A stretch of DNA of 64,000 nucleotides from IMG/VR virus record IMGVR_UViG_3300033994_000436, one strand, 5' to 3'. Positions 10,349 through 57,780 of the stretch are shown here, one piece after another; position 1 is the stretch's first letter, and each line of letters opens with the position of its first letter. Both the position numbers and the translations under genes were made by a program. The notes under the pieces were generated by a model. That model was not told the origin of the DNA. It saw nothing but the letters and a program-made list of their open reading frames with translations, and did no database searches. This stretch comes from an uncultured virus (IMG/VR IMGVR_UViG_3300033994_000436) (lineage: Duplodnaviria > Heunggongvirae > Uroviricota > Caudoviricetes).

Positions 10349-10855
10349 TTACTTTACGAATTTAAAAAGGCACTTTGGACAAATGCACGTTTCTTTGTCT
10401 TTTGGGTCTGCTTTTAACTCATTATCGACTGGTTCTTCGGCAGAACCGATCAATTCTGATAGCTGTTCGTTGCTGAAGGCCAATAGCGACACATCGAACT
10501 TGTAGTCATTTAGCTCGTCGATTTCGACAGAAAGCATATCGAAATTCCAATCAGAGTTAAGCGCGATGCTGTTGTCGGCAATGACATACGCCTTGCGTTG
10601 CGTATCCGACAGGTGAGCAAGCCGGATGCATGGAACATTATCCCACCCAAGTTTCTTTGCCGCCAGCACACGACCATGTCCGGCAATGATGTCGTAGGTA
10701 TCGGAAATCAGAACGGGGTTGGTAAATCCAAATTCTTTTATGCTCGCCGCGATTTGGCTAACTTGAATGTCGCTGTGCGTGCGGCTGTTCCTTGCGTAGG
10801 GGATGAGCTTGTTGATGTCGATTTGCTCAATGCGGTGAGATATTTTGCTTTCCAT
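10349..10855 (-). CDS. ParB/Srx N-terminal domain protein
   Basis: LIPYARNSRTH, IKEFGFTNP, IIAGHGR, AYVIADN; C-terminal CPKC. Confidence 0.9.
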   Translation of the reverse strand: MESKISHRIEQIDINKLIPYARNSRTHSDIQVSQIAASIKEFGFTNPVLISDTYDIIAGHGRVLAAKKLGWDNVPCIRLAHLSDTQRKAYVIADNSIALNSDWNFDMLSVEIDELNDYKFDVSLLAFSNEQLSELIGSAEEPVDNELKADPKDKETCICPKCLFKFVK

Positions 10856-11053
10856 GCTGAGTATTCCTACAGGTTTTGTTTTCCTTGTAAAAAGAAAACT
10901 CCCCTACCTCATAGGAAGTAGGAGAGCGTTTTTCCCCTAACCCCAATGTACGGCTTTCGCGGTACTTGGTTTAGACGGGCAAGATAATCTGGTGATGCAT
11001 GGCGTGTCAATGGGGAGTAAAAGGTTTTTTCCAAGACCCATAAAAAAAGGTTG

Positions 11054-11081
11054 TTGACGGCCATTGGGTTTTTGGTATGGT
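11054..11081 (+). promoter_or_regulatory. Sigma70-type promoter driving a structured RNA
   Basis: TTGACG-16 nt-TATGGT with extended -10 TG and an upstream A-tract. Confidence 0.65.
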
Positions 11082-11087
11082 CACCTC

Positions 11088-11252
11088 GTTCTGAATGTGG
11101 ACGCATTGGAACGCGATTTTACCTCGCAGGCAGATTTCGATCTCCTGCTGAAAGACCCGCCCTGTGGTGCAACACTCGGCGGGTCTTCTCATTCTTGGGC
11201 AGGCACGCAGGAACCACAGGCGAGTGTGAATGCGTACCACAGCGGCCTGTAG
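11088..11252 (+). ncRNA. Multi-hairpin RNA with complementary loops (C4/CI antisense-like)
   Basis: Hairpins at 11088-11112, 11126-11148 (UUCG loop), 11152-11187 and 11216-11250; hairpin 1 (11096-11107) and the hairpin 3 loop are complementary to 11221-11242. Confidence 0.6.
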
Positions 11253-11317
11253 AACTGGCTTTGTCGAACCAAAACGACTTACCCAGCAAAGAAGAGAAGA
11301 AACACTCTGCCTTCATC

Positions 11318-11937
11318 TTAAAGTCACAATCTGTGATTTCAATTGGAGGGTAGAAGTTTCTTTTCCTTACTCTTTCCTTTCCTCAGTACCTATTGGGGGG
11401 ATCAGGGGGGTGTTTCCTTTCTCCTTCGGTTTTCTTTGCACAGGTTATTCAAGAAAAACGACTCTGGCTTTAATAAGGCCATCGGCTATTAAAGAAAAAC
11501 GCAACAACTCGCCAAACGTGTCGATAAAACGCGGTTTTCTATACACGCTTCGCCAGATATGTCGATTTCACCCTAATTTTTGTACATATGAATCAGGTTA
11601 TACCCGAAAGGGAGCGTTTTTTCTGACAAAACCACATTTGTCGAATGCCAATAATTAACAATTCCATTACAAACCATCTGCACTTGTCCATATCTGTCTA
11701 GGAATTGTAAACAAAAACTGAACGATACACACGGAAAGTGTAGTGTGCAATGTCAGTTATAGCCAGCGATCTGCAACTCAATTTTTAAACCCATCGAATT
11801 CGAGGGGTTTAGATCCATGCCTTGAGATTCCCCCATGAGGGGAATTTATGCGCACAGGATAAACCATGATAAGATCCCTAAACTTGCTAAGATCCCTAAA
11901 CTTGCTACAACCTTATTGTTGACGCCAACAAAAAGGT
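11318..11937. repeat. Array of diverse palindromic (operator-like) sites
   Basis: About 10 distinct imperfect inverted repeats, most of them in 11468-11937, with no credible ORF. Confidence 0.7.
11870..11905. repeat. Perfect 18-bp tandem direct repeat
   Basis: TAAGATCCCTAAACTTGC x2. Confidence 0.95.
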
Positions 11938-11972: not shown

Positions 11973-12500
11973 GTGTTATATAAAATATTTGTATTGAACA
12001 ATCAAATTACACTTAAAAGAGGCGACAGGCATCCAGATAAAAATTTATTGTTCTGGTGTTATGGTGGGGCCAATAAAACAAAACCAAGATGGGTTTCTGT
12101 TAATGATTTCAATGATAAAAAAGAAAAAGATCGAATAAAATCTATTAAGTGGAGGAAGCACAATAAAGAAAAACATAGGATGCTTTCTAGGGAGTGGCAA
12201 ATAAGAAATCCCAATAAAGCAAGTGATAAAAGCAAGCGATGGAGATTAAAAAATAGACATCGCGCTAATGAGCATTTAGCAAGAAGGAGAGAAAGAATTT
12301 ACAAGCACTCAACAAATATAGATCAAGACTCAAAAGAAATTATCTGTGTCCTTTACGAGCAATCTAGGAGATTGTCGTTCTGCACAAAAATTAAATTTCA
12401 TGTGGATCATATTATACCATTGGTTCACGGAGGAAAGCACTCTCCAGAAAACCTACAAGTGATTACGGCATTTATGAATGCAAGGAAGTGGGCAAAATAA
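11973..12500 (+). CDS. HNH homing endonuclease
   Basis: FHVDHIIPLVHGGKHSPENLQVITAFMN motif; AT-rich; opposite strand; exact start uncertain. Confidence 0.85.
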   Translation: MLYKIFVLNNQITLKRGDRHPDKNLLFWCYGGANKTKPRWVSVNDFNDKKEKDRIKSIKWRKHNKEKHRMLSREWQIRNPNKASDKSKRWRLKNRHRANEHLARRRERIYKHSTNIDQDSKEIICVLYEQSRRLSFCTKIKFHVDHIIPLVHGGKHSPENLQVITAFMNARKWAK

Positions 12501-12590
12501 AATCGGGGAAAGATCAGGTCGCTAGATTAAAGACCAGTTACCCATTGGGTCACGCCCGATCAAGACCCCCCCTCATTGCCTCCCCCGATT
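12501..12590 (-). ncRNA. Closed-stem structured RNA at the end of the tRNA operon
   Basis: Termini AATCGGGG/CCCCGATT pair; internal GATC/GATC, ACCC/GGGT and GGTC/GACC stems. Confidence 0.45.
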
Positions 12591-12658
12591 ATAATGCCCC
12601 TTGGAGTCCTTGCGGCGTGTCCTTGTGGCAGTGGTTCACCGAAGATCCCCACGAAAAT

Positions 12659-12734
12659 TGGAAGCAGAGGTTGGAATTGAACCAACTATCTCGCACGTTA
12701 TGAGCGTGGTGACTTGCCGTTTGTCCTCTCTGCT
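12659..12734 (-). tRNA. tRNA with CAT anticodon (Met or Ile2), atypical
   Basis: Acceptor AGCAGAG/CTCTGCT, loop CTCATAA, T-arm GTTGG-TTCAATT-CCAAC, encoded CCA. Confidence 0.85.
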
Positions 12735-12909
12735 TTGAAATTTTTCTGGCTACTCTTTTCGAGCAGAATTCGTGCGCCAGAGGCACTAGTGGTTAGGCCA
12801 CCCCGACCATCCAACCTCCTCTTTCGAGAAAGCCCGTGGGCTTTTGTCAATCAGATGGAACCTTTGAATTGAGTTATCGAGTATTCCTCGGTAACTGGCA
12901 AGCAAAAAT

Positions 12910-12985
12910 TGGCACAGCCCCTTGGAATCGAACCAAGCCAGCAAGATTTGGAGTCTCGCTCGCCTACCTTGGAACATTGGACTGC
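12910..12985 (-). tRNA. tRNA-Trp(CCA), atypical
   Basis: Acceptor GCAGTCC/GGGCTGT, loop CTCCAAA, T-arm CTTGG-TTCGATT-CCAAG, encoded CCA. Confidence 0.8.
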
Positions 12986-12992
12986 GTTACAA

Positions 12993-13020
12993 ATCCTATG
13001 CACTTGTTAAGATTAGTCAA
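12993..13020 (-). promoter_or_regulatory. Promoter of the tRNA-Trp/Met transcript
   Basis: TTGACT-16 nt-TAGGAT ending 7 nt before the tRNA-Trp 5' end. Confidence 0.65.
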
Positions 13021-13087
13021 GGTTTTCAGTGTTACCAGATAACTTGCAAGTACTAATTATCTACTAAAACGTTTACAATTAGTAGTT

Positions 13088-13160
13088 CTGCCGCGCTAGG
13101 ACTTGAACCTAGAAAAGTCTGCTTCAAAGGCAGATGAGTCTACCATTCCTCCACACGGCA
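13088..13160 (-). tRNA. tRNA-Gln(TTG)
   Basis: Acceptor TGCCGTG/CGCGGCA, TCTGC-CTTTGAA-GCAGA anticodon arm, CTAGG-TTCAAGT-CCTAG T-arm; CCA not encoded. Confidence 0.9.
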
Positions 13161-13168
13161 ATAAAAAA

Positions 13169-13297
13169 CTATTTCATCCTCTTATACACTTCAGATGCTT
13201 TATCCATACAAGTAGGGCAATTATGAGGCTTGCAGGCAGTTTGGCAAGCCGGACAACGATACTCGCGGCCTTGCGGTAATTTTGTTTTTTTATCCAT
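13169..13297 (-). CDS. Small zinc-finger protein (42 aa; below ORF-track cut-off)
   Basis: MDKKTKLPQGREYRCPACQTACKPHNCPTCMDKASEVYKRMK, two CxxC. Confidence 0.5.
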   Translation of the reverse strand: MDKKTKLPQGREYRCPACQTACKPHNCPTCMDKASEVYKRMK

Positions 13298-13366
13298 TAT
13301 AGCAAATTTACATATTAAAGACGATTCTATTATCCTTTAATAAGGCTTTTTCTTATTAAAGGTTGT

Positions 13367-16273
13367 CTAATCGCTCATGTCAACAAACTCCATTGCGTCA
13401 ACAATAGATTGAAGCCTGCTTCGCGGCTCTCTTTCAGGCTTTTGATCTGTCATCGTGGCAACTGCCCCTCCACGCAAGCGCATCAGGTACACAAGCATGG
13501 ACAGGGAATCCAGAGCATCTGGCGACTTGCTCCTTGTCCGCTTGCAGTAGTCTCCCTTGCTCTCAACACGAACTAGCCCCTGTCCGGCCTGCTTGTACCT
13601 GCGAGAAGTTGCCTGCCTGATCAGGTCTTCGTTTCTAAAGCTGGGGCTGATCTTCAGATATTCAAATTCCAGATACTTCGACAACCCAAATAGCAATTCT
13701 GTCACAACGCCGTTGTACAACTCGTTTGCCTTCTGGCTGTCGTCCCCAAGGATGTGATGCTCGCTCGCCGCCCATGAATAATTTACTCCCATAACTTGTT
13801 CTCCAAAAAGAGTACAAAGGCTGTCGTGAATGCCTGCGCCATTTCCAGTCCTGTCAACCACCAGCCAGTTGGGGCCAATCTTCATCTGCTTGGCAAACTT
13901 GATAATAGCCTGCGTCTGTTCCAACGTAGGTTTCTTGGGGAACGGAATCTGGCTATCAAGCTGAAGAACAACTCGCGGCTTCTTAAAGCTAATGAACTGA
14001 CCACTTTGCGGTGTCCACCCGTCACAAAGCCCAAAACGGCCATAGGAACACATTACTTGGTCATTACCCTCCAACGCCAAATCAAACGCCGCCAGCGGCA
14101 CTACAGGCCCGATAAAACGAACGATACCAATGCTGTTGTCCATCATGGCGGGAGTTATGATGCCCATTGCCATTCCTTCCTCTGGGAACCACCCGCGAGC
14201 CATCGTCATGGACTCCGCCGTCCTGCCCCTGCTCATGTACGACATGAATCCCTGATAGGTCTGCAATCCTCCGTAAACAATCCTGCGTTCGATCACGTTC
14301 TCGCACTTCGCGGCATCTAGACGGAGTACATGGTATCCCTCCTTGCTTTCCCATTCGTGATCATCCTCGCAGTCAACAGATGCCCATCCATTCACAGGCT
14401 CGCAACGCTGACCGAATGCACTTGTCCTGTCCTTCGGGTTGGACGCACCAAAAATCTTAATGTGTCCGGCGTATTTCTCAGTGTCACTAGTAGACAAGAT
14501 GTTGTTGATACCCTCCCAGACTCCAGACGGGATCTCTTCGGCTTCGTCCAGCACAACATGGGTGCGCGATAGCCTGCCCCATAGCTTATGCTCTGCCCCA
14601 AATCTTGGAGTTGGGTGATACCCGCGAAGCGTTCCATGTCCACTCTCTCCCTTGGGAATCGCAACAAGCTGGATTCCGTTCTTGTTGTCGGAAGTCACCT
14701 GAATGCTTGTCGCCTTGTCTTCCTGATCTGTTACAGGACGAACCAATGCTGTTCGATGGAATGTCTTAATATTCGCAAAGATGTTTCTCTCGGCGTGTTC
14801 CTTGGTAAGCGAAATAACCTTGATACAGGTGTATTCAGGATCTCTCCACCAATCCAAGTAAAACCATGCGCCTGCACTGAAGCTGTTGTGCGTTATCGTG
14901 AAATCTCCAAGTAGGAATCTGTGATCCCCATCCAAAGAGAATCCGTAATACTTTTGAACGCCTGCTTTTGAGATTGTGATCTTTCTTCCAATACAGACCC
15001 GCTGTCTCCTTTCTCTAATCGGCTTTAGTCTGCATGGGATGATGGTGCAATCGCCGCTGATGTGTCCTCTGTAATATGTTCCCCATACTCCATTGTTAAC
15101 GCATTCTTTCTTGCACTCTGTGATTGTTGCAGTCAGCCCAAGACTCCTAGCAATAAACACAATACCATTAGCAACATCTTTGTTCTTTTGGATAAATCCG
15201 TATCCAACATCTGCAATGTATCCATCTGTATCTAGGAAACCAGCCAACACATTGCGCCGGACATCATCAGAGTTGATTTTATAAATATCAGGAACAATCT
15301 TTTCTCGTCCTTTCATGGCAAAGCCAAAAACATCATGTGTCTTTCCAAGTCCACGAACCACATAGGTTGCAGCCTTGTTGTCCTTTTTCTCGTTTTTATA
15401 GATCCTTCCACCACGCGATTCCCAATAAGAATTCCATGCGGTCACGTTGGATTCGTCCATTGATGTAAATGTAGGAGCAACACATTTTGATCCTCCATCG
15501 CCAAGCCACAGACCAAAAACGTATGGGTCAACAGGAACCTCTTGTTCGTCAAATGCAACGCCTGTATATGCGCCCTTGTAGAACTCTTTGAACTGATCTG
15601 ATTTCTCAATGTATTCCTTGATCGGAATATCAATCATTTTTCCTCTGGTATAGGTTGAAGAAGTAGTTTTTCCATCGCCGTTCTTTTTGTTTTGCGTGCA
15701 TACAAGAGTCAGAATGTGATTCTCATTGACCGTGTACGACTCTCCACGCTCTTGATCAACGCGATACATTTCAGACTCTCCAGAATGAGTCTCAAGAACA
15801 TGACGAGGCTTGCTGTCCGGCCCCATGACTAGATCGCCAATGATTACATTCTCTACAGACTTGATTGTTCCATCTGCCATCAATACAGGCGTTCCTTCTG
15901 CTAGGCACTTGCCCATAGCTCCGGCTCCCTGCACCAGCACCTGATCATGTTCAAACAAGCAACGCCATGTGTCCCTCCCACTCTTTGGCCTCCAGTCGTA
16001 CACTTCCGCACCCCAAAGAATCGTAGCCGCCGCCTCAAAGTGATTGTGATCCAATAGATGTTGCACATATCGCCGGACAACATCCTCGGCAGTCTTTATA
16101 TCAATCTCCTCAACCTGTACGGGGTTGGCTATCGTCTTCATCAGAATATATTGTGCGGCATAAAGAATGCCCATCTCCTCATCGCGGTCTGCCTCCTTGC
16201 GGATGTTCGTCGCGTGCTGGTGATAATACTTCCTGCTGTGCGGAGGCGTAATTGTATATCCTGTGTCGTTCAT
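13367..16273 (-). CDS. terL: Terminase large subunit, intein-containing
   Basis: Walker A GAGAMGK|S, Walker B VVLDEAE, motif III ASNP, nuclease AAFDLA, VDRTGNGAG, KSPDALD. Confidence 0.9.
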   Translation of the reverse strand: MNDTGYTITPPHSRKYYHQHATNIRKEADRDEEMGILYAAQYILMKTIANPVQVEEIDIKTAEDVVRRYVQHLLDHNHFEAAATILWGAEVYDWRPKSGRDTWRCLFEHDQVLVQGAGAMGKCLAEGTPVLMADGTIKSVENVIIGDLVMGPDSKPRHVLETHSGESEMYRVDQERGESYTVNENHILTLVCTQNKKNGDGKTTSSTYTRGKMIDIPIKEYIEKSDQFKEFYKGAYTGVAFDEQEVPVDPYVFGLWLGDGGSKCVAPTFTSMDESNVTAWNSYWESRGGRIYKNEKKDNKAATYVVRGLGKTHDVFGFAMKGREKIVPDIYKINSDDVRRNVLAGFLDTDGYIADVGYGFIQKNKDVANGIVFIARSLGLTATITECKKECVNNGVWGTYYRGHISGDCTIIPCRLKPIRERRQRVCIGRKITISKAGVQKYYGFSLDGDHRFLLGDFTITHNSFSAGAWFYLDWWRDPEYTCIKVISLTKEHAERNIFANIKTFHRTALVRPVTDQEDKATSIQVTSDNKNGIQLVAIPKGESGHGTLRGYHPTPRFGAEHKLWGRLSRTHVVLDEAEEIPSGVWEGINNILSTSDTEKYAGHIKIFGASNPKDRTSAFGQRCEPVNGWASVDCEDDHEWESKEGYHVLRLDAAKCENVIERRIVYGGLQTYQGFMSYMSRGRTAESMTMARGWFPEEGMAMGIITPAMMDNSIGIVRFIGPVVPLAAFDLALEGNDQVMCSYGRFGLCDGWTPQSGQFISFKKPRVVLQLDSQIPFPKKPTLEQTQAIIKFAKQMKIGPNWLVVDRTGNGAGIHDSLCTLFGEQVMGVNYSWAASEHHILGDDSQKANELYNGVVTELLFGLSKYLEFEYLKISPSFRNEDLIRQATSRRYKQAGQGLVRVESKGDYCKRTRSKSPDALDSLSMLVYLMRLRGGAVATMTDQKPEREPRSRLQSIVDAMEFVDMSD
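14885..15907 (-). mobile_element. Intein (341 aa) with LAGLIDADG homing endonuclease
   Basis: Starts CLAEGTPVLMADG, has NENHIL block B, GLWLGDG and LAGFLDTDG blocks, and ends THN followed by Ser. Confidence 0.95.
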
Positions 16274-18510: not shown

Positions 18511-21060
18511 TTATTTGGATTCTAGTGTTTCAATGCGTTCAGTTAGGTTATTGATGATGCCAGCAAGGGTCTCATTCTGGTCGGACAATTCTTTGACTGA
18601 TTTAATAAGAGGGGCAATGAACTCCTCGTAGCGTAGACCCTGTTCAGAGTTTGGATCGTTCTTGTCGGTGAGAACCCAGCCGCCAAAGTCAGTCCCTTCT
18701 GGAAGTGCGGCCTTCACCTCTTGGGCGAGAAGTCCGTAGTGAACACGCTGACCAGCAATAGGCTCAATCTTCGTGGGGAGACCATTTTCATCGGTCTCAG
18801 TAACAACATTCCCGCCAACCTTGAACTTGTATGATACAGGACGCAAAGAGTTGATGAAATCCAACCCTAGCGAAGAGTCGGCAATCTCAGTTTTCTCTCT
18901 CTGGTCGGAGGTTTGTATCATTCCATTCGCCGCCCAAACAGCCGACCACCTTGCACCCGACTTACCCAAGGTCGTTGCATTGTCTACGTTGGGAGCGACA
19001 GCCCCGCTTCCTTTTCCAGCAAGCCTTAAATCAACATCAGTGTCTGTTCCTGTTGCTTGAACTATCGGTGAAGTTCCAGTGTCAGTTCCTGTTACTTGAA
19101 TCCTATTAACAGAATTTGCGCTTTGCGTTGCAAATAAAGTAAATGAGTTATTTGAGGCATTTACAAGATTGATGCCATTATCAAAAAAACCAATTCTCGT
19201 AGCTGCGCTAGATAAGTTGACCGAAGACCTAATAGAAGCACCTGTTATTCCGTCATTTGCAGGAAATGAAATATCAAAAATTGCCGAGTTGTTGGTTACG
19301 GCGATACTTCCTTTTTCAAGTTGGTTTCCAGAAAACGCATAGTTTGTGATACCTCCATTACTTGTTCCAATAAAAGCCAAAGCATACTGAAACCCTCTTA
19401 CATCGTTAATAACTATGTTAGAATTAAAATTGACTTGATAACATAGACTGTTGACGAATTCCACTGGATTAAGTCCCGATCCAATAGTTCCACAATCTTT
19501 AACTACGTTTCCAATAATGTTTAAATTTTTGGTATCTAAGAACGGATACGCAGGAGTTTGTGTTTCTTTATCTATTCTTATTCCACTTCCGTAACAATTT
19601 TCTATTTGATTGCCTATTACATAAGTATAGTTACATGCGGATAAGCGGATTCCAAGATACTGATTTGAGTTTGAAACGGCTCCGCTTCCAAAAATCTTAT
19701 TATTAGAAATAGTTGTTCCATATATGCCATCTCTACGCCCCATTACCCATATTCCAGTAAGCCCAAAATTTTCTACAATGTTATTAACTATGATTAAATT
19801 CTTTATAGGCCCAAATTGAGAAGGATTATCAATAGTATCAGTTGCTGTTGCTAAAATAGAATATTTTGACAGCCCTTTGCCGTTTAAATAATTATTTTGG
19901 ATAATTCCGTTTTTTGAACCGTCCCATTGGTCAATTACTCCATCAGATGAACCATAAGTTCCAACTTGTTCGCAAACATTGTTCTCAACTAAATAGTATC
20001 GCGTAGCCACATTGCAAACCGCTCCGCCATCAGAAAGTAAATGACAATTTGTAACTTGTGTATATTGGCAGTTATAGAAATAGATTAACTGCCTAGCCCC
20101 TGAAATTGCTCCCACGACAAGACTAAAATCAAAACGCAGGCCATTGATTTTTATGTTTGTGTTTCCTGTTGTGTAATTTTTGTTAATTACAGCCCTTCTT
20201 CCAAAGTTGGGGGATGGGGGTTGATTTGGGTAGGCAGGAGTGCCATTTGGTGTTGAAATCCATTTTAATGAAGTGCAATCATAACCCTCTCCTAACAAAG
20301 TAATATTACTCCCAACGGTGAAAGTTTGAGAACAAGCGTAGAAAGATGAAGTGGATGGGAAAAATACCGTCCCGCCTCCTTGCGTGTTTGCAAAGTCGAT
20401 TGCGGATTGAATAGCCGCTGTGTCATCAGCAATCCCATCCCCAACTGCCCCAAAGTCTTTGACGTTCACAACGTCTGCAAATCGGTTTGCAAGCGTCCTA
20501 GGTGTCGTGCTTCCAGTAGCAACGACAGATGCTGATGAAATCTCTCCCGTGCTTGCCGATCCCATGCAGACGATCACAACCTGTGACCCATTAGGAATCG
20601 CCGTGCTGAACACAATTGTAAATGGGTTGCCAGACGCGATATAGTAATTGCTAGGAGCCTGCACAACGCCGTCGATGTAGACCAAGTATGCTGATGGAAG
20701 CGTAGCAGTAGCATCAGGAATCTGGTAGGTAGTCGTGCTTCCGTTGCCTGTGAACGTCCAGTTCAAGAATGGCGAAAAGACCTGCGTGCCTCCGCTAATA
20801 AACTCGTTAAACACCCGCATGATGTAGCAGAGCAGACCCTCTCCTGCGTTTCGTGGCACTCCGTTAACTGATGCCGTGTTATTAGGATCGCACGGGATGT
20901 TCCACTGCACCCTGCGGTTGACTACCGTCTTGGTAATCGTGCCATAAAGGGCTGTTACTAAGTTATCAATCAGGCTAGGAACCGACTCCGACGAGACGCT
21001 AGGATAAGGAATATCCTTGCGGCAGGCTCCAGCATAGGCAGACGTAGATCCGTTAGACAT
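18511..21060 (-). CDS. Tailspike 1 with beta-helix and C-terminal intramolecular chaperone (peptidase S74)
   Basis: VNVKDFGAVGDG; Asn-rich parallel beta-helix repeats; TSDQREK...LRPVSY...GLLAQEV...LRYEEFIAPLIKSVKEL. Confidence 0.9.
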   Translation of the reverse strand: MSNGSTSAYAGACRKDIPYPSVSSESVPSLIDNLVTALYGTITKTVVNRRVQWNIPCDPNNTASVNGVPRNAGEGLLCYIMRVFNEFISGGTQVFSPFLNWTFTGNGSTTTYQIPDATATLPSAYLVYIDGVVQAPSNYYIASGNPFTIVFSTAIPNGSQVVIVCMGSASTGEISSASVVATGSTTPRTLANRFADVVNVKDFGAVGDGIADDTAAIQSAIDFANTQGGGTVFFPSTSSFYACSQTFTVGSNITLLGEGYDCTSLKWISTPNGTPAYPNQPPSPNFGRRAVINKNYTTGNTNIKINGLRFDFSLVVGAISGARQLIYFYNCQYTQVTNCHLLSDGGAVCNVATRYYLVENNVCEQVGTYGSSDGVIDQWDGSKNGIIQNNYLNGKGLSKYSILATATDTIDNPSQFGPIKNLIIVNNIVENFGLTGIWVMGRRDGIYGTTISNNKIFGSGAVSNSNQYLGIRLSACNYTYVIGNQIENCYGSGIRIDKETQTPAYPFLDTKNLNIIGNVVKDCGTIGSGLNPVEFVNSLCYQVNFNSNIVINDVRGFQYALAFIGTSNGGITNYAFSGNQLEKGSIAVTNNSAIFDISFPANDGITGASIRSSVNLSSAATRIGFFDNGINLVNASNNSFTLFATQSANSVNRIQVTGTDTGTSPIVQATGTDTDVDLRLAGKGSGAVAPNVDNATTLGKSGARWSAVWAANGMIQTSDQREKTEIADSSLGLDFINSLRPVSYKFKVGGNVVTETDENGLPTKIEPIAGQRVHYGLLAQEVKAALPEGTDFGGWVLTDKNDPNSEQGLRYEEFIAPLIKSVKELSDQNETLAGIINNLTERIETLESK

Positions 21061-21068
21061 ATTGGGAA

Positions 21069-21097
21069 CTATTAGGTATCGCCATTAGCTATGTCAA
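21069..21097 (-). promoter_or_regulatory. Promoter of tailspike operon
   Basis: TTGACA-17 nt-TAATAG. Confidence 0.6.
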
Positions 21098-21106
21098 TAA
21101 CTAATG

Positions 21107-22399
21107 CTATCGTTGCTCAATCCAAGTCATTGCCGCAACTGCCGATTTGTTATTGGTCGAACACGCTCCAACGATTGTTAAAGTGTCGCTTACGGTTCCC
21201 ATAGCACTGCGCCCAATCTGATATTGAGTGTCCTTGTTGATGGCAATAGTTCCACCTGCGCCTGCCATCACAAAGCCGGAATCAATGCTAATACCACCAG
21301 AAAATCCAGTTGCCGTGGCGTTGTACTGGGTAAACGAATTGGTGTCCTCCATGTCGTTCCATGATCCTCCAGTCACGGTAGCGTTTCGGATCAGTTTGTA
21401 AAAGATGCTGGTGTTATCAACCGTAGCCACCTGATAGTACTGAGGAAGCACAACTCCCTGAAGATCAGCGGACTTTAGCCTAATGGAAAGCAGGTGAGTA
21501 AATGTATTAACAGATCCTGTGTTAACGCCAGTAATGGCCGTCTGGACGTTTTGCGCTACACCTAGCTTCTCTGGCTGTCCTTCGCTGATTAGTGAATTAG
21601 ATCCCTGAGACATCACGAAAGGCCCACCAGCTTGACCGCCTGTAAGGTTCTTGATCTCGACGCGAATAGGCAGGAACGGAGTCTTGCACCAAACAGAAGG
21701 AAGCACATTCGCGGTATCAAATGTATGGACAATGATGGTCTCTCCTGCGATCAGCCATCCAATCTTGACTTGTCCAGCACCATACCAATCGTATTCAAAG
21801 CTGACCATCTGTTGCTTGGTAGGGTCAGCAACAATTCCGCTAGGGCCATTGCCGTCCAGCTTGTCGCCATTCCAATTCTCCCTGCCAACACGCTGTGAGG
21901 TTCCGCCAGTGTTCATGATGCCGCAATAGTAATTGCCATCTCCGCCGTCTTCAAAATACACGCCGTCAGTCCCGTTGTTTATCCCAAACCTGCGCCTGAT
22001 TCCTGACACTGGCACATTTAGTTTAATGGAAAAGGAAAGGGTGCTGGTACGACTGGGGATGTACCTCATAACGTGGAGCGTCTGCCGTACGACCTCGCTG
22101 TTGATCGTGCTTGTTACGCTCATGTCAACGCCTGAGTTGTTCGGGTTGTGCGTAGCGACACCCCCTGATGCAGTTGACTCATCCCACACATCGGTTTCTT
22201 TCCCGTACTGGAAGGTATTAAAGAACACGGTCTGATAGGGGCTGACCTTGAGCCTGCCCTTGCCAGTAAAATTCATGCGAGGATCTTCGGGAGCAGAAGC
22301 CGAAGCCGTGTTTGAAATAACCCTATTCAACAATTCCAAAACGTACTGCCGGAAGTTGGCAGTAGACAGGTTGCTTTGAAATGACGACTGGAATGACAT
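21107..22399 (-). CDS. Putative virion structural protein (all-beta)
   Basis: 430 aa, Gly/Ser/Thr-rich; GRLKVS, RRRFG, YDWYGAG, WIEQR; own TTGACATAGC promoter. Confidence 0.55.
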   Translation of the reverse strand: MSFQSSFQSNLSTANFRQYVLELLNRVISNTASASAPEDPRMNFTGKGRLKVSPYQTVFFNTFQYGKETDVWDESTASGGVATHNPNNSGVDMSVTSTINSEVVRQTLHVMRYIPSRTSTLSFSIKLNVPVSGIRRRFGINNGTDGVYFEDGGDGNYYCGIMNTGGTSQRVGRENWNGDKLDGNGPSGIVADPTKQQMVSFEYDWYGAGQVKIGWLIAGETIIVHTFDTANVLPSVWCKTPFLPIRVEIKNLTGGQAGGPFVMSQGSNSLISEGQPEKLGVAQNVQTAITGVNTGSVNTFTHLLSIRLKSADLQGVVLPQYYQVATVDNTSIFYKLIRNATVTGGSWNDMEDTNSFTQYNATATGFSGGISIDSGFVMAGAGGTIAINKDTQYQIGRSAMGTVSDTLTIVGACSTNNKSAVAAMTWIEQR

Positions 22400-25976: not shown

Positions 25977-26264
25977 TTATTTATTTTGTTTGTTGTGGCT
26001 ACTGGACATATGCCATCCGGCGCATTCGTCGCAGAAGTATGCTCGTAAGAAACTGGTTCCTCCGAATCCGGCTCGCAGTCGGTGCTTGATAGCATCATCG
26101 CACTTGGCTTGGGATGTAAAGACAGATTTTCCGCACGGGCCTTTTTTAGGCTTCTCTCGCATCTGGATCAATCCCATCTCTGCGGCTTCCCTTCGGTTTA
26201 TTGGAGGTAGTTCTGGAGTTTCCAGCCCTAGCTCGTTGAGGATGTTGTCGATTGCTTTGCTCAT
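25977..26264 (-). CDS. Small Zn-binding protein (start MSKAIDN)
   Basis: CGK...RAYFCDECAGWHMS motif; ATGA overlap. Confidence 0.65.
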   Translation of the reverse strand: MSKAIDNILNELGLETPELPPINRREAAEMGLIQMREKPKKGPCGKSVFTSQAKCDDAIKHRLRAGFGGTSFLRAYFCDECAGWHMSSSHNKQNK

Positions 26265-27085
26265 TTCTTCAGTTGTTTGAGGTATTCTGCCTGAACATTG
26301 GCAGGCCATTCTTTGAAACTAATGGTCTTGTCTGTTACATCGTAGTTGGCGATCAGCCATGAAATGGCATCCTGCTCGTCTATCTGGATGGCCTGTTCTT
26401 GCGTCGAGGATGGCCCTGTAGCTCGTTTTGCTGTCAAAGCGGCGAAATCCATGCCGGAGTCTTCCCAGCGGCGTTGATTTAGCCATGTGGATGGGTGTGG
26501 AATGTATGCACCGCGATCCTTGATCCAGTCGTTGGATTGCTTGGCCTTGTGAAGAGCCTTCAGGATGATGTTGATTTCCGGCAGTTCAGCGTTAGCCCAT
26601 GCCGCCTCTGCGGTTCCTTTGCCAACCTTCTTTGGGTAAGAAGCCCAGAAAGAAAGAAATTCAGGGGAAACTTCTACTTTCTTCTTTTTATTGGTTCTGG
26701 TTCTTGGTTCATGGTTCTTGGTTAGGATCTGATCCGCATCTGATTTCAGATCCGTTCCAGAATCTTCCTCTGTAAATGACCACCGCAATTGGTTAGCCTT
26801 GCGTGCTGAATCGGCTTTTTTGTGATATTTTTCTATCTCCTCGTCGCATCGTTCGTGACGATAACCATCTTCTGATTTCAGAAAGAATTCAGATAAGATA
26901 TCAGATACGAAACTGACATGATCTCTCATGCCGATGAGACGGGCAACGCATTCTATATCCAAAGGAATTGGAGCCTCTGTCATATAATAGCGGTCTATGA
27001 GTCTGCGATAAATTAAATCTTCAGTCGGAGTGAGATGCGCCGTCTTTTTGACATAATCTCCAAGATGGAATGGGTAAAAGTTCAT
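26261..27085 (-). CDS. DUF1376/YdaU-family replication initiator
   Basis: MNFYPFHLGDY..TAHL...YRRLID.YY; C-terminal FWASYPKKVGK...IPHPSTWLNQRRWED. Confidence 0.85.
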   Translation of the reverse strand: MNFYPFHLGDYVKKTAHLTPTEDLIYRRLIDRYYMTEAPIPLDIECVARLIGMRDHVSFVSDILSEFFLKSEDGYRHERCDEEIEKYHKKADSARKANQLRWSFTEEDSGTDLKSDADQILTKNHEPRTRTNKKKKVEVSPEFLSFWASYPKKVGKGTAEAAWANAELPEINIILKALHKAKQSNDWIKDRGAYIPHPSTWLNQRRWEDSGMDFAALTAKRATGPSSTQEQAIQIDEQDAISWLIANYDVTDKTISFKEWPANVQAEYLKQLKK

Positions 27086-35349: not shown

Positions 35350-35453
35350 GGTGTTTATTGGGTTGGTTGGTGATTAATTACGATAATGGTTCCAGACGAT
35401 ATATGTGCAATATCCAATCGCACAAGTAAGGATGAATAGATTACTGAATTCCA

Positions 35454-35702
35454 TTACATTTTGGCTTTCTTGATTTGGGGAGGCTTGCTGTTGGTGGCCT
35501 TTCCCTTAGTCGGCTTCATGACGACATTTTTGTCCTTGGGCATCTTGGGAGATTTATTTGCGGCATCAAGTCCAACTCTGATTTCCGGCGTTGAGAACTT
35601 CAGAGATGATGCAGATGATTTGTTTGTAACCATCGGAACGCTAATAGAATTAGTTTTCTGCTTATTAACAGCAAGTGGGTTTTTAGGATTGTAGTATCGC
35701 AT
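35454..35702 (-). CDS. Lys-rich hypothetical protein (start MRYYNP)
   Basis: Starts 1 nt after the upstream stop. Confidence 0.55.
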   Translation of the reverse strand: MRYYNPKNPLAVNKQKTNSISVPMVTNKSSASSLKFSTPEIRVGLDAANKSPKMPKDKNVVMKPTKGKATNSKPPQIKKAKM

Positions 35703-35703
35703 T

Positions 35704-35940
35704 TTATTTGCGGGTTGTGTACTGGCGTTCCTCAAGCATTGCATCAGCAAATGCATATGCCATTTCTGCCGCCGCCTCCGGCTCACTAGCCAACTTCTCG
35801 CTGGCAATTGCTTGCAGTGCGGCCTTGGCAAAGTAATCACGAATGCTTGCTCCAGAGTTGGAGCGAACAGGAGGGTTGCTGGTATCTCCCTCGTAGGGAT
35901 TAACAGGGTATGCAGGATGATTGATAGGATCTCGGCTCAT
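35704..35940 (-). CDS. Conserved small phage protein (RDYFA motif)
   Basis: PAYP...IRDYFAKAALQA...AY..ADAML. Confidence 0.75.
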   Translation of the reverse strand: MSRDPINHPAYPVNPYEGDTSNPPVRSNSGASIRDYFAKAALQAIASEKLASEPEAAAEMAYAFADAMLEERQYTTRK

Positions 35941-36110
35941 AAGATTATTTGGATGTTTTTTTGTTTGGGAAAACTGATGACCGCAATTTAGGTATTAATA
36001 GCCCTCGCTTGTCAAGCCTGTCTAAGAAAATCCAAACAAATGGTATGCATGGCCTGTATACTGAGTTGTTTCGATATGTGATGTATGAATCCATATATGT
36101 ATTTATTTAT

Positions 36111-36359
36111 TTATTCGGAAGCCACTTCAATCTCGTTTTGGGATTCCATTTCTTTTGCCTGATCCTCGCGGATGTCTAGGATAAGCCTTTTCAGTTCTAG
36201 TGCTACTTGCGAATCTTTTCCGAAATAGGTTCGGTTGTAGCAATAGCGTTCGTAGATGAACGCAAGCATTTGCTCACGCATCTCATCTCTTCCTGCGTTG
36301 TACGGATGGGTTTCCATGTCAAGGTTGGGTTTAATTGCTTGGGTTGTTATGTCAAGCAT
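36111..36359 (-). CDS. Hypothetical protein
   Basis: Part of a coupled early operon. Confidence 0.6.
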   Translation of the reverse strand: MLDITTQAIKPNLDMETHPYNAGRDEMREQMLAFIYERYCYNRTYFGKDSQVALELKRLILDIREDQAKEMESQNEIEVASE

Positions 36360-53823: not shown

Positions 53824-56800
53824 CTAGAACATTACTGGATCAGTCATATCACCATACGTTATTCCATTAATTTGTGGAGGTTGCATTGCGTGACCCTCCA
53901 TGCTTTCATTCTGATTTTTTAGGTAAGTAAGTGCCGCCGCCCAATAGCGTTGAGATTGCTCCATGAAGTCCTTGTCTTCAAGGTCACAAGCATGAACTGC
54001 GGCAATGATTGCACGCTCGTTTTCGACTGGAATGTAGTCGTACTGGCTTGAGATGACAGGGCGAGCCATGCGGTAAATAATTCTTGCCCATGAGCAATGT
54101 TTTCCGATGCGAATCCTGCGGTACTTTGGGTTGGTTTCCGTAGGATGATATTGTCCTATCAACGCCATGTCGTTGCTCCTTCCGTAGTCCAATGCATACA
54201 GGCTTACATATCCAAGAGTTTCAGGCTTTTCGACATGGAGAATGTTTTTAACCAATGTCGGAGGAAGAATTGAATCTACAAAGAAAGTGCTATTTACGTT
54301 TTCACCTGTGTTGTAAAATGTAATTCGTCCAACAGAAGATCCCGTATTGATGGCGTTAGCATATGTGTCATAAAGCTCAAAGCTATTAGCGTCAACTGGT
54401 CGCGCATAATAGTATTGCGGGGATGCCATCGAACTTGCGACAAGACCAGTGGGCAATACATCACCTTCGACTGGACGAACAGTGACTTGGTCTCCAATGT
54501 CTAACAAAGATCCAGTTGCAACAATGCTGGTAGAAGCTACTGGAGAAAATGTACGCACAATGTTCATGCTCATCTGACCTACAGGAAGAGTAGGAATTGC
54601 GCCATTGACGAAGACAATCGGATTGTTGGATGTGTCAGTCAAAGACAAATTGTTCCCAGACAAAATAATCTTGTAATTGGTTCCAGCAACAAGCGGAAAT
54701 GGAAGAGATCCAGTAGAAGAGAATTGTACAAGCTCTCCATTTTCCAGATATTCAATAGAGCTAGGAGCAACTAGGTTGTTGTATGCTTTTGCATATGATT
54801 CCAAACGAATCCCAAAGTACGCTTGTCCGACTCCAAGGCTTGTTGCAGGCACAATTCCAATTGTTATGGCGATTGTCGTTCCAGTTGCTGTAATGGTTGC
54901 CGGATTGTTTAATGTAATTGTAGATCCAGAAACATTGTCAATAAATGTATTCGCAGGAATGCCAGCACCAGTAACCTTCTGACCAATTGCAAGACCAGCA
55001 GAAGAGCTAACGGATGTTACTATTTTTGATCCGTTTGTTGTGTTTGCAGTTCTTGATTGTGGCGAGTTTGTTGCGTCTGAAGAAGACAAATAGACTTCTG
55101 CGGTTTTGTTATCAATAACTCTGAAAAAATATTGGCTGGAGGTGTTCACTCCACTTGGAAGAAGATAATCAGAAGCAAAATAGAAACCCTGCGGCGGAGC
55201 GTTTACTATTCCAGAGAAGTCACCAGTCCAAGTGCTATTGAATGTAATTCTAAATGGCCTTGTAAGTGCTACATAAAAATTACCTGTTGCAGAGCCTGTA
55301 ATATTTACATCGCTGAAGTCTGCATTTCTTATGGTGTACGTTCCAGATGATGGATCAAGAGGTGATTCTATTCTGTATGCAGTACCAGTTGCAAGCGGTT
55401 GAGGAAGCGTTCCTGTAGAGGAAAATTCCACAAAAACGCCAGTTGATGGAATGAATGAAACAACTGGAGCAGTAACATATCCAGTTCCTTGTGTAACTAT
55501 AGATACAGAAGTTACAGATCCATTTGAAATTTGTGATGTTGCTGTGGCTCCTGTTCCACCACCGCCATCGATTTTTACAATTGGAGGGTTTTCATAACCA
55601 GATCCACCTTGGCCAGCAGGAATAATAATGTTTGAAACAAAAGATGTTTGCAGAATTGCGGTTGCGTTCGCTCCGTTTGCTGTTGCGATATTTGTTGCCG
55701 CATAATTCCCTCCAGTTACTGTGGACGTTGCAACATTGCTTAAAAGAATGGAAGTGGCAGTTGGCTTTGAAACAATTGTTGTATTGTCGGGAATATTGTC
55801 TCCATAGACAACCGCTCCAATCTGCAAGGCTGTAACGGTTGCTGTTGCAATAGTAGTTAAAGTTCCGCTTCCATTTGTACTATTTGCTGTAAAGGCAATA
55901 TTTGTTGTTGGAGGATCAATTGTTATTTTGGGAGACGTTATATACCCCTGTCCTGCTGATGTTATTACAATAGATCCAACGGCAAAAGTAGCAGAACCAG
56001 ATGCGTCTGGAATCATGACCGCATATCCAGTTGCAGTAGAAAATGCTTGTGGAGATCCAGCGGGAATTGTAGGGGAAAGCACAAACGAGTTTGTTGCACT
56101 AATAGTAGCAGGATTGCTTATGGTAAGTGTTGAAACACCAATTCCTGTAATAATTGTTCCAGTTGATATTCCAGTTCCTGTAATTGTTTGACCAATAACA
56201 ACATTAGACAAATCAGAAACGGCAGTAAGAGTTGGCGATCCATTGCTTGATGTAGCAGTAATGGTATATGTTTGCCTTGGGCTATCAAACCTAACAATCG
56301 GTGCATCTGTATATTTAGATCCGCCCTTTGTTATTCTAATGTTGGTAACACCACCAGAAACAGATGCAATAGCAGATGCTGGGGTTGTAACTAATGGAGC
56401 AGGAATATTAAGGTTTGGCGCAGTGATTTGGTTAATTGTTCCAGTTGTTGATGTTGCATCAATTAGTTTAACAATTGAGTTTGTGCCAGATCCGTTATCT
56501 GTTAACGTAATTGGATTTACTCCCGTGCTTGCATCACCTGCGTTTGTATGGAGTGAAATGGTATTATCATCAATAACAAATACAAAATAATTCTGCCCTG
56601 CAATTAGAGGAGTAGGTAGCGTTCCTCCTGATGTAAATGTTTGAACTTGATCGCCAGTTTGATAGTAATGTTTAACAGAGAATGAAAGAGTTGTCTGAGG
56701 AGCAATCTGCTTTCTAATATCTGTGTTAAACTTTCCACTATTTCCAGTTAACAACACTGGATTTGTTCCATTCTGAGCGTCAAGAATGCTTGAATATACC

Positions 56801-57780
56801 TGAAGGTTTGTTGCATCCAAGGATTGTGCAAAATATGTTGTGTTTGCAACTAGAGGTGATGGCAATGCTGGGGCAAAGCCTGCTCCAGCACCAACAGAGA
56901 ATGCAATATTGTTCGGAGAATCAATCGTGATAGTCGGAGTAGATTGCAGATTAATTGCAGTAAGCAGATTGCTTGGCCTTGCGTCAGTCAGAATAACATT
57001 CCCTGCGTTAAGTATGCTCTGCAAGAAAATGGGATTGTTCCCTGCTTTTGCGTCTAGTGAGTTTTGATACAATTGGATGGTATTTGCATCATCAACTCCA
57101 ATGTAATATGTATTTCCGGCGTAGATGAAGTTTGGCATCGTTCCAGAGCCGAGAGAAAGCACTCCAGACTGACCAGAGTTAAGCTGGTGTGCGGTTGCGG
57201 AAACAAACTTTGAAAGCGGCGAGATAGCAGTTGACCGAGTCTGAATAGTTACGCCGTCAGGCTCAATAGAGCCAAGAGGGAAATCGGTTTGAGCGTGGAT
57301 TGGAACAAGAACGCCGTCGATAGTTGTTCCATCGGGCATTTGAGTGCGAAGCTCTCTATTACGAGAGTCAGTTCCAATTACGCGAATTTGCCCTCCTGCA
57401 TCAGCATTGTGTTCGGACACAGCAACCAGTTGCGATGGTTGGCGAATGTCCATGATAGTAGCTACAAAGCCCCTGTCATCCCATGCCCAATCGACGGGAT
57501 TGTACATTCCACCTTTGTTTACATGGTACTGGAACAAACGCCCCCTGAAATATGTAGGAGATCCATCAACATTAACACCAAGCGGGACTTCAATGCCGCG
57601 AGGAAGCGTAATAGTTTGTCCATCCCATCCCGTGCAGACATCTACCTCCTGATTAGTATGGAAGTAATGTCCAGACTCCATAAGAATCTGAACAGCTTGA
57701 GTCAGCTTGCGAAAAACCTTCCTTTCATCAGTCGTGGCAAGGATTTCCGCCGCCTCGTCATATATCTGCGAGACAAACAT
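53824..57780 (-). CDS. Tail adaptor (tubular A)-like protein with a large repetitive insertion
   Basis: Helical N- and C-terminal ends with ITLPR; central repeats GTLP.PL.AGT.Y. Confidence 0.55.
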   Translation of the reverse strand: MFVSQIYDEAAEILATTDERKVFRKLTQAVQILMESGHYFHTNQEVDVCTGWDGQTITLPRGIEVPLGVNVDGSPTYFRGRLFQYHVNKGGMYNPVDWAWDDRGFVATIMDIRQPSQLVAVSEHNADAGGQIRVIGTDSRNRELRTQMPDGTTIDGVLVPIHAQTDFPLGSIEPDGVTIQTRSTAISPLSKFVSATAHQLNSGQSGVLSLGSGTMPNFIYAGNTYYIGVDDANTIQLYQNSLDAKAGNNPIFLQSILNAGNVILTDARPSNLLTAINLQSTPTITIDSPNNIAFSVGAGAGFAPALPSPLVANTTYFAQSLDATNLQVYSSILDAQNGTNPVLLTGNSGKFNTDIRKQIAPQTTLSFSVKHYYQTGDQVQTFTSGGTLPTPLIAGQNYFVFVIDDNTISLHTNAGDASTGVNPITLTDNGSGTNSIVKLIDATSTTGTINQITAPNLNIPAPLVTTPASAIASVSGGVTNIRITKGGSKYTDAPIVRFDSPRQTYTITATSSNGSPTLTAVSDLSNVVIGQTITGTGISTGTIITGIGVSTLTISNPATISATNSFVLSPTIPAGSPQAFSTATGYAVMIPDASGSATFAVGSIVITSAGQGYITSPKITIDPPTTNIAFTANSTNGSGTLTTIATATVTALQIGAVVYGDNIPDNTTIVSKPTATSILLSNVATSTVTGGNYAATNIATANGANATAILQTSFVSNIIIPAGQGGSGYENPPIVKIDGGGGTGATATSQISNGSVTSVSIVTQGTGYVTAPVVSFIPSTGVFVEFSSTGTLPQPLATGTAYRIESPLDPSSGTYTIRNADFSDVNITGSATGNFYVALTRPFRITFNSTWTGDFSGIVNAPPQGFYFASDYLLPSGVNTSSQYFFRVIDNKTAEVYLSSSDATNSPQSRTANTTNGSKIVTSVSSSAGLAIGQKVTGAGIPANTFIDNVSGSTITLNNPATITATGTTIAITIGIVPATSLGVGQAYFGIRLESYAKAYNNLVAPSSIEYLENGELVQFSSTGSLPFPLVAGTNYKIILSGNNLSLTDTSNNPIVFVNGAIPTLPVGQMSMNIVRTFSPVASTSIVATGSLLDIGDQVTVRPVEGDVLPTGLVASSMASPQYYYARPVDANSFELYDTYANAINTGSSVGRITFYNTGENVNSTFFVDSILPPTLVKNILHVEKPETLGYVSLYALDYGRSNDMALIGQYHPTETNPKYRRIRIGKHCSWARIIYRMARPVISSQYDYIPVENERAIIAAVHACDLEDKDFMEQSQRYWAAALTYLKNQNESMEGHAMQPPQINGITYGDMTDPVMF

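Follow-up and report, generated by a model that had tools for sequence, protein, structure and literature searches.

A covarying RNA of uncultured tailed phages whose variable, mutually matched loops look like a self-recognition switch

We report an uncatalogued, strongly covarying RNA of uncultured lake phages, carrying a strain-coded antisense switch, which, judging from the comparison of its homologs, is very probably real. Two hairpin loops of its leader vary from strain to strain and yet match each other, and they look like a self-recognition switch. On sequence evidence, which is indirect, we tentatively assign it to an RNA-opened (R-loop) replication origin under same-strand antisense control as the most likely reading, with a loop code that would tell self from non-self. 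Even should the origin model fail, an RNA family remains that is well supported and has no entry in Rfam 15.

The RNA element and its homologs

The window, as we call the whole stretch of 64,000 nucleotides analysed, covers most of an uncultured tailed-phage genome with nearly all genes on the minus strand. The RNA element sits in a 1.1-kb gap, with a ParB_N gene on one side and a block of HNH, tRNA and terminase genes on the other (Table 1). Near-identical DNA is present in the four runs compared with the window, three of which are labelled lake water metagenome; all four have one base fewer at position 11548, where the window probably contains a sequence error. Neither a cultured relative nor a host was found for the window phage. 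The RNA element had no match in GTDB genomes, cultured phages or plasmids, and the 72,556 plasmids of PLSDB showed no similarity to it (blastn, E ≤ 1). The Rfam 15 scan of the window gave no match at the element, its sole match being a tRNA elsewhere. A literature search retrieved no description of the RNA; the six available supplements of PMC10690425 contain no match, yet it may be among the 10,006 unnamed candidates of that study.

Table 1. Coordinates of the RNA element, its neighbours, the replication initiator and the sister element (window positions unless a locus is named)
Feature	Position	Strand	Remarks
Predicted sigma70-type promoter	11054-11081	+	-35 TTGACG, 16-bp spacer, -10 TATGGT
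Whole predicted non-coding RNA, ~350 nt	11087-11437	+	limits inferred from conservation; none of the frames holds a conserved ORF
Hairpin H1	11087-11113	+	loop 11098-11103, hypervariable target code, of L262/L275 type in the window
Hairpin H2	11126-11148	+	variable; missing from some homologs
Hairpin H3, terminator-like	11152-11187	+	loop 11167-11172, hypervariable antisense code, of L248 type; mismatched to the window H1
Alternative partner of the H3 3′ strand (11179-11184) after capture of the H3 loop by H1	11203-11208	+	predicted
Hairpin H4, first core element	11217-11249	+	stems covary; loop nearly constant
Hairpin H5	11255-11286	+	stems covary; loop AACCAAAA nearly invariant
Hairpin H6	11294-11365	+	purine run paired with first CT-rich run; apical insert variable
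Bipartite G-tract, G6-ATCA-G6	11395-11410	+	kept in 30/30 elements
U-rich tail	11411-11437	+	48-64% T over 25 nt across homologs; conservation ends here
ParB_N-domain gene	10349-10855	-	context; divergent from the RNA promoter
HNH gene (+), three tRNA genes (-), intein-bearing terminase large subunit (-)	11973-16273		context; converge on the RNA
Replication initiator	26261-27085	-	DUF1376 N-terminus and C-terminal domain (residues ~135-274), the latter co-occurring with the RNA
Iteron-like palindromes in the initiator gene	26739-26750 and 26871-26882		
Sister element	L528-L540 (e.g. L530:2250-2770; G009 56710-57190); also L001, L004, L005, L009, L011		

Loci of ParB relatives yielded the first three homologous copies. 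Pattern scans of viral and metagenome contigs then gave 27 distinct stretches, three of which (L266, L272, and L276, matched by a 3′ pattern) were discarded as chance, leaving 24 with the window included; a profile search added nine more divergent loci. The alignment used below (A3) holds 27 leader-bearing sequences, namely 21 of the former and six of the latter, L438, L459 and L512 being omitted as near-copies of L447. L280 is misaligned in it (0/6 pairs by column, 7/7 with the loops extracted), which slightly lowers the tool counts. Two further scans proved uninformative: the H3-stem pattern hit 120 loci with no family member among them, and the H5 pattern hit 116 loci, the members among which lay only on already-known contigs.

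The preliminary description of this DNA had proposed a promoter at 11054 driving a structured plus-strand RNA. Taken alone, the promoter is ordinary, with a score of only 9/12 and 11 such sites found by the scan against 7.0 ± 3.0 in shuffles; on the other hand, it is conserved in homologs. Elements were cut at the TTGAC motif, but in each of 23 listed elements the ~270 nt searched contained no second candidate. The motif is present in 30/30 distinct elements, followed at 16–17 bp by a -10 box (A at position 2, T at position 6) in 29/30; most homologs have a 17-bp spacer and CATATT or CATAGT as -10 box. Promoter conservation and covariation thus bear out a promoter-driven, structured RNA of the plus strand, as far as sequences can tell, and this strand of the window folds at z = -3.5.

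Covariation is strong in H4 and H5 (80/432 cells), and H6 covaries as well, with many G-U pairs, which favours an RNA of the plus strand. A G6-N2-4-G5-6 tract and a U-rich tail are found at the 3′ end of 30/30 elements, and L448, L480 and L518 keep the G-tract though its C-rich flanks are lost. Since the predicted pairs of the G-tract do not covary, the constraint appears to act on its sequence. The core formed by H4–H6, G-tract and tail can stand without the leader: in three leaderless elements (L238, L244, and L277) the promoter lies immediately before H4. These three have an unusually short apparent spacer, and their core, driven directly, lies behind an inserted gene. The palindrome array which the preliminary description had placed downstream of the regulatory RNA is not a separate entity, being the core of the same conserved RNA. 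No conserved ORF was detected in 26 elements, which share no start, length or register and have frameshifts and stops in every frame; a 142-aa ORF at 11230 was rejected as coding on these grounds. Nor is any downstream gene conserved among 27 loci, and the two findings together suggest that the output of the element is the core itself.

The H1/H3 loop pair and the alternative folds

Nowhere is the leader more variable than in the H1 and H3 loops. In 25 of the 27 leader-bearing copies they are nonetheless exact complements of 6–7 nt, and 10 of the 12 distinct loop combinations, two of which are 7-nt codes, match perfectly, a number reached by none of 200,000 permutations. The loop helix is paired in 94.4% of cells, against 64.7% in shuffles, with 41/162 cells changed on both sides, and RNAalifold finds it unprompted. 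The match runs over the stem tops to ~11 bp, 96.3% paired. Across 10 codes, cognate pairs have a mean predicted duplex energy of -18.4 kcal/mol and non-cognate pairs one of -7.7 kcal/mol, the strongest non-cognate pair reaching -16.5 kcal/mol. Relatedness inflates such covariation counts, but ten distinct codes cannot derive from one inherited change. Indeed, outside the loops L259 and L261 share 99.0% identity, and yet they differ at 9/12 loop positions. In L248 and L249 the same two loop sequences occur with their H1 and H3 positions exchanged.

Two folds of the leader can be drawn: fold T, with the H1 and H3 hairpins, and fold A, in which an H1:H3 duplex would free the 3′ strand of H3 to re-pair downstream. 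When the duplex is forced, the base stem of H3 is lost, its 3′ strand re-pairs just downstream and H4 folds. This spare helix is paired in 86% of cells, its segment being present in 16–17 of the 27 rows, and shows one compensatory change (L249). In free folds H3 is closed in nearly all copies. Fold A lies 0–15 kcal/mol above the free fold, and of the 18 matched copies that were folded just one has it as its minimum; being energetically costly, fold A would have to form kinetically, during RNA synthesis. A U-tract (≥6 in 9 nt) follows H3 in only 11/27 copies, which makes termination at H3 doubtful. From the forced folds and the pair counts, two mutually exclusive folds, as the preliminary description had supposed, are plausible: both are compatible with the alignment and fit a switch rather than a static kiss.

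The pairs which had been proposed for these folds are different. The complementary blocks are present in the window, namely 11162-11168 with 11236-11242 and 11172-11178 with 11221-11227 for H3, and 11101-11107 with 11229-11235 for H1, the latter extended by 11096-11100 with 11237-11241; the second copy at 11213-11220 is likewise present and complementary to 11161-11168. Their number is unusual, too: the window has four long-range blocks of at least 7 Watson-Crick pairs, against a mean of 0.41 in 1000 dinucleotide shuffles of 11085-11252, one of which reached four. However, this complementarity is not preserved in the 27 leader-bearing homologs. Cells changed on both sides amount to 1/362 for the two-block pairing of H3 and to 0/324 for that of H1 with 11229-11241, in both cases no better than shuffles. 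The H3 loop is still an antisense-type element, as had been supposed, but its partner is the upstream H1 loop and not the blocks at 11213-11242. As for H1, its 3′ strand does invade H4 in about the proposed register in 4/19 free folds (L003, L015, L237, and L447), with H3 closed, but this pairing does not covary. Most likely, the blocks of the window reflect the similar stem tops of H1, H3 and H4, together with two loop codes that happen to extend the match. Caution is in order here, as the copy scanned is itself mismatched, and reading one genome alone gave the wrong pairs.

Indeed, two of the 27 copies are exceptions and the window copy is one of them, with H1 and H3 loops that pair at only 2/6 positions; judging from the sequence, it cannot form fold A. 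Its H1 loop has the L262/L275 code and its H3 loop that of L248; over 10856-11457, L248 differs from the window at 18 positions, four of which are in the H1 loop. One contig of run X1, which may be the source sample, has the loop combination of the window, with no differences. In run X2, one contig differs from the window over 300 nt solely at the H1 loop, where it has the L248 code, and another, starting at 11172, shows loose letters of the L262 code; run X9 provides a contig with a third, matched code. The contigs of run X5 leave 11099-11116, over the H1 loop, uncovered, a gap to which no weight was given. Assemblers may produce chimeras by bubble choice. Since the L248 and L262 codes occur in one lake sample, the window copy is either an assembly chimera or a true recombinant, and the contigs fit both.

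The sister element and the replication modules

In other close relatives, the slot between the TerL and ParB genes holds a non-homologous element in reversed orientation. Its long RNA is predicted to open with a variable-loop hairpin, the complement of which would be carried by a divergently transcribed small RNA with an overlapping promoter. Thirteen loci were fetched; hairpin and small RNA match in 8/8 aligned copies with five codes, insertions included (L536, which is L528 in truncated form, was excluded from this alignment, A4). At its end, the long RNA has the iteron-like palindrome of the rep gene beside a CT-flanked G-tract, and Rfam gave no match for the three sister loci scanned. RNA and sister element were never found together (0/5 records and 0/3 RNA-bearing genomes tested). 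That one slot should hold either of two unrelated elements built on the same logic suggests strong selection, phage against phage, on RNA self-recognition.

The presence of the RNA goes along with a particular replication initiator. The C-terminal domain of the window initiator is found on 8/8 RNA-bearing records with a rep gene (window, G002–G005, G007, G016, and G017) and on 0/4 RNA-lacking relatives (G009, G010, G013, and G015), a split that represents only about two lineages against two. This count leaves aside G006, G008, G011 and G012 (fragments without a rep gene) and G014 (not a family member), and the whole-record searches leave aside L275, L280, L268, L273, L238 and L254. The four RNA-lacking relatives share only residues 1–142 with the window initiator and carry an IstB/DnaC-type loader instead, which was not found in G002–G004 or the window. 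The window terminase is 82–85% identical to those of G015 and G009 and about 22% to those of G002–G004, which argues that the RNA follows the replication module and not the virion genes. G015, a complete and syntenic relative, has neither the RNA nor the sister element, suggesting that phages with a full Rep and a loader can do without the module.

The domain matches no Pfam or NCBIfam family, Foldseek found nothing at E ≤ 0.001 and there was no sequence relative in the PDB. A first model (pLDDT 59) was set aside as too poor. With the second (pLDDT 78), the best VIA-align row is the helicase loader domain of SPP1 G39P (1no1_A; Z 5.7, rmsd 2.1, 59/67 aligned), a weak lead, as unrelated helical chains score within 1 Z of it. 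In the atlas the nearest named family is Phg_2220_C (0.90, 116 shared features), again a lead only. The domain occurs either fused to DUF1376 or as a standalone protein of ~155–170 aa with an N-terminal CPxC motif (e.g., G002 20696-21184). GAACCA repeats in the linker of the rep gene (26690-26730, minus strand) resemble the invariant H5 loop (11266-11275, plus strand), by mimicry or by chance.

The relatives speak both for and against a replication origin at the RNA. G002–G004, complete distant relatives of 51–54 kb, carry the RNA, while their initiator is reduced to the C-terminal domain and iteron-like palindromes are missing; lacking DUF1376 and in-gene iterons, these phages must have their origin elsewhere. 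In the window and G007, on the other hand, Rep is full-length and its gene has iterons, so that no second origin is needed. No integrase was found in G002–G004 (0/3) and no ParA in the five records searched (0/5); there is thus no evident resident state for which copy control would be of importance. The cumulative GC skew has no clean switch at the RNA element.

Possible functions of the RNA

In the origin model that we favour, H1 would capture the emerging H3 loop during transcription (fold A), RNA polymerase would read on and the core would fold. At the G-tract, the RNA may stay hybridised to the template as an R-loop or a DNA:RNA G-quadruplex, as at mitochondrial CSB II. The transcript would stop in the U-rich tail, and the opened DNA would allow helicase loading by the initiator C-terminal domain. 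Short leader RNAs of the same strand with a free H3 loop would bind H1 of nascent transcripts having the same code, so as to impose fold T and shut initiation; copy control, exclusion of same-code phages and selection for new codes would result. A fuller version is possible but rather doubtful. It combines an R-loop origin under a "self-antisense" RNA, with lock (H1), key (H3) and primer (the G-tract core) on one transcript, an incompatibility system of at least ten codes among co-infecting phages, and relatives that swapped in a second, independently evolved antisense-controlled origin along with a different helicase-loading module. If this phage version were true, antisense on the same strand would join the logics of ColE1 and C4/CI. 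Ten natural orthogonal codes can be tested in vitro without a host.

Antisense-controlled, RNA-started replication is known from ColE1 and MRB plasmids, and for some mycobacteriophage prophages it has been inferred (PMC3035462, PMC7157519). In ColE1 (RNA II/RNA I) and MRB (pB1067), a long, structured, promoter-driven RNA exposes 5′ hairpin loops that are bound via a kissing step (PMC3035462, PMC9458437). The phage RNA is similar in that variable loops would set specificity or incompatibility with several natural codes, here judged from sequence alone. It differs in that target and antisense loop share a strand, the latter 63 nt downstream, whereas RNA I is made from the opposite strand, across the 5′ end of RNA II; a simple promoter pattern occurs on that opposite strand in only 2/24 phage elements and at different places. 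Moreover, the phage RNA has no similarity to PLSDB plasmids, and its carrier is a tailed phage encoding a whole or partial initiator. In RNA-primed replicons the RNA stays hybridised and serves as primer for DNA synthesis, with no Rep protein involved; of the features that might serve such a hybrid, the phage RNA has the G-tract and the U-rich tail. The extrachromosomal prophages of cluster A mycobacteriophages have RNA-based origins that were tested functionally, as PMC7157519 reports. Shared with these are a region of non-coding RNA in a phage that has no integrase, a proposed replication start and the alternation with a protein-based system among relatives (PMC7157519); on the other hand, parABS was not found here, the available text of PMC7157519 describes no loop code, and the origin role proposed for our RNA is read from its sequence. 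As to the G-tract, CSB II (G5AG7) terminates transcription at the priming site of human mitochondria and has, like the phage RNA, two non-template-strand G-tracts 1–4 nt apart, with a U-rich run after them and a promoter before them (PMC4176368). Polymerase and domain of life are different, and this is a resemblance of pattern only, with no homology claimed.

Alternatively, the element could be a C4/CI-like same-strand attenuator of expression and not of replication, the short H1–H3 RNA terminating transcription of same-code phages (superinfection exclusion) and the core being a regulatory RNA or the leader of the following operon. We regard this as unlikely, although several features agree with it. 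An antisense segment and its upstream target lie on one transcript with a terminator-like hairpin and short-loop specificity, as in P4 (seqA/CI), P1/P7 C4 and Gifsy-1 (short and long IsrK; PMC4825925, PMC8201110). The loop codes diversify, the genes downstream of the RNA share its direction in the distant clade, and the sister element leads into the ParB-portal operon. The C4 antisense RNA has targets on both sides (a1b1 and a2b2). By contrast, the phage RNA has one loop pair, not two, and an upstream target only: 13 of 18 elements hold no extra copy of the loop code downstream, and five have one each at unrelated places, none positionally conserved. P4 CI acts as a processed small RNA that brings about premature termination; in the phage RNA, a U-tract follows H3 in 11/27 copies only. 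The P4 CI RNA pairs with seqA upstream and with seqC downstream (PMC4825925); its upstream pairing is shared by the phage RNA, while a downstream pairing was not found in the 18 elements. C4 models (RF01695, c4-2) gave no match at the gathering score in the window or in eight homolog loci, and none of the five weak window matches (E ≤ 10) is C4. The table in PMC2864571 gives no Rfam accession for the c4-a1b1 motif, and the Rfam scan was thus made without it. C4 RNA has icd/antirepressor genes downstream (PMC8201110); these families were absent from 64 window ORFs searched with Pfam and from 22 and 68 ORFs searched with PHROGs. That no antirepressor gene follows had been remarked in the preliminary description, which had proposed a C4/CI-like switch; the RNA belongs to none of the C4, CI and ColE1 families. 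In addition, neither replication genes downstream nor an integrase or repressor was found in the relatives, and the downstream genes, besides not being conserved, are mostly on the opposite strand in the window's clade. An attenuator would, finally, leave the invariant G-tract and the link to the initiator domain unexplained.

It is also rather improbable that the element is a free structural RNA, such as a ring resembling packaging RNA, a protein decoy or a scaffold, with the H1 and H3 loops in an ordinary intra- or intermolecular kissing contact. The phi29 pRNA oligomerises via two complementary loops on one molecule, and two such loops are shared by our RNA, which always lies within ~3 kb of the 3′ end of the terminase gene where that gene is on the locus, and has its own promoter while neighbours and orientation vary. 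However, a packaging RNA of this type is needed by all members of a phage group, while three elements lack both loops and complete G015 lacks the RNA; there is no Rfam match either. Furthermore, a mere kiss predicts neither 9/12 loop changes between 99% identical copies, nor an 11-bp duplex that melts both stems, nor a spare partner for the H3 strand.

An effect at the DNA level, by template-switch correction between short inverted repeats or by a variable-spacer recombination site, with the element acting as DNA, is improbable to a greater degree. The matched loop pairs are all Watson-Crick and the exchanged loops of L248 and L249 are what a hairpin-loop micro-inversion would give, but G-U alternates with G-C and A-U on the plus strand throughout H3, H4 and H6, the promoter is conserved, the intervening segment is inverted in none of the 27 copies, and in the sister element the repeats matched across its divergent promoter are direct and not inverted. 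Least probable is a type I toxin-antitoxin module with a short hydrophobic peptide encoded in the U-rich 3′ part and silenced by the antisense loop, since the hydrophobic residues that the CT-rich block gives in all three plus-strand frames, and the divergent small RNA of the sister element, which resembles TisB/IstR-type layouts, are countered by the frameshifts, stops and unshared starts, lengths and registers of the 26 elements.

Several minor features of the surrounding DNA were recorded. The terminase large subunit (13367-16273, minus strand) contains a Hint/LAGLIDADG intein, and the terminases of relatives, 628–648 aa long, are consistent with its absence. Two related, imperfect palindromes (11468-11494 and 13335-13361) flank the HNH/tRNA block, and a further palindrome of 26 nt is found at 11786-11811. 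Short tandem repeats at 11862-11908, immediately 5′ of the HNH gene, apparently vary in copy number in run X9. On the 3′ side of the RNA, two TGTCGAT boxes lie 40–41 nt apart (11518-11566), possible protein-binding sites whose spacing is repeated in five other loci among the 23 examined. In the distant clade, the RNA is often directly followed by a gene for a 322-aa amidinotransferase/DDAH-like protein (G002 35358-36326, minus strand; L520:15358-16326). Finally, the unrelated phages L033, L044, L052 and L064 have G5-N-G5 tracts, on both strands, ~300 nt upstream of a ParB-like gene.
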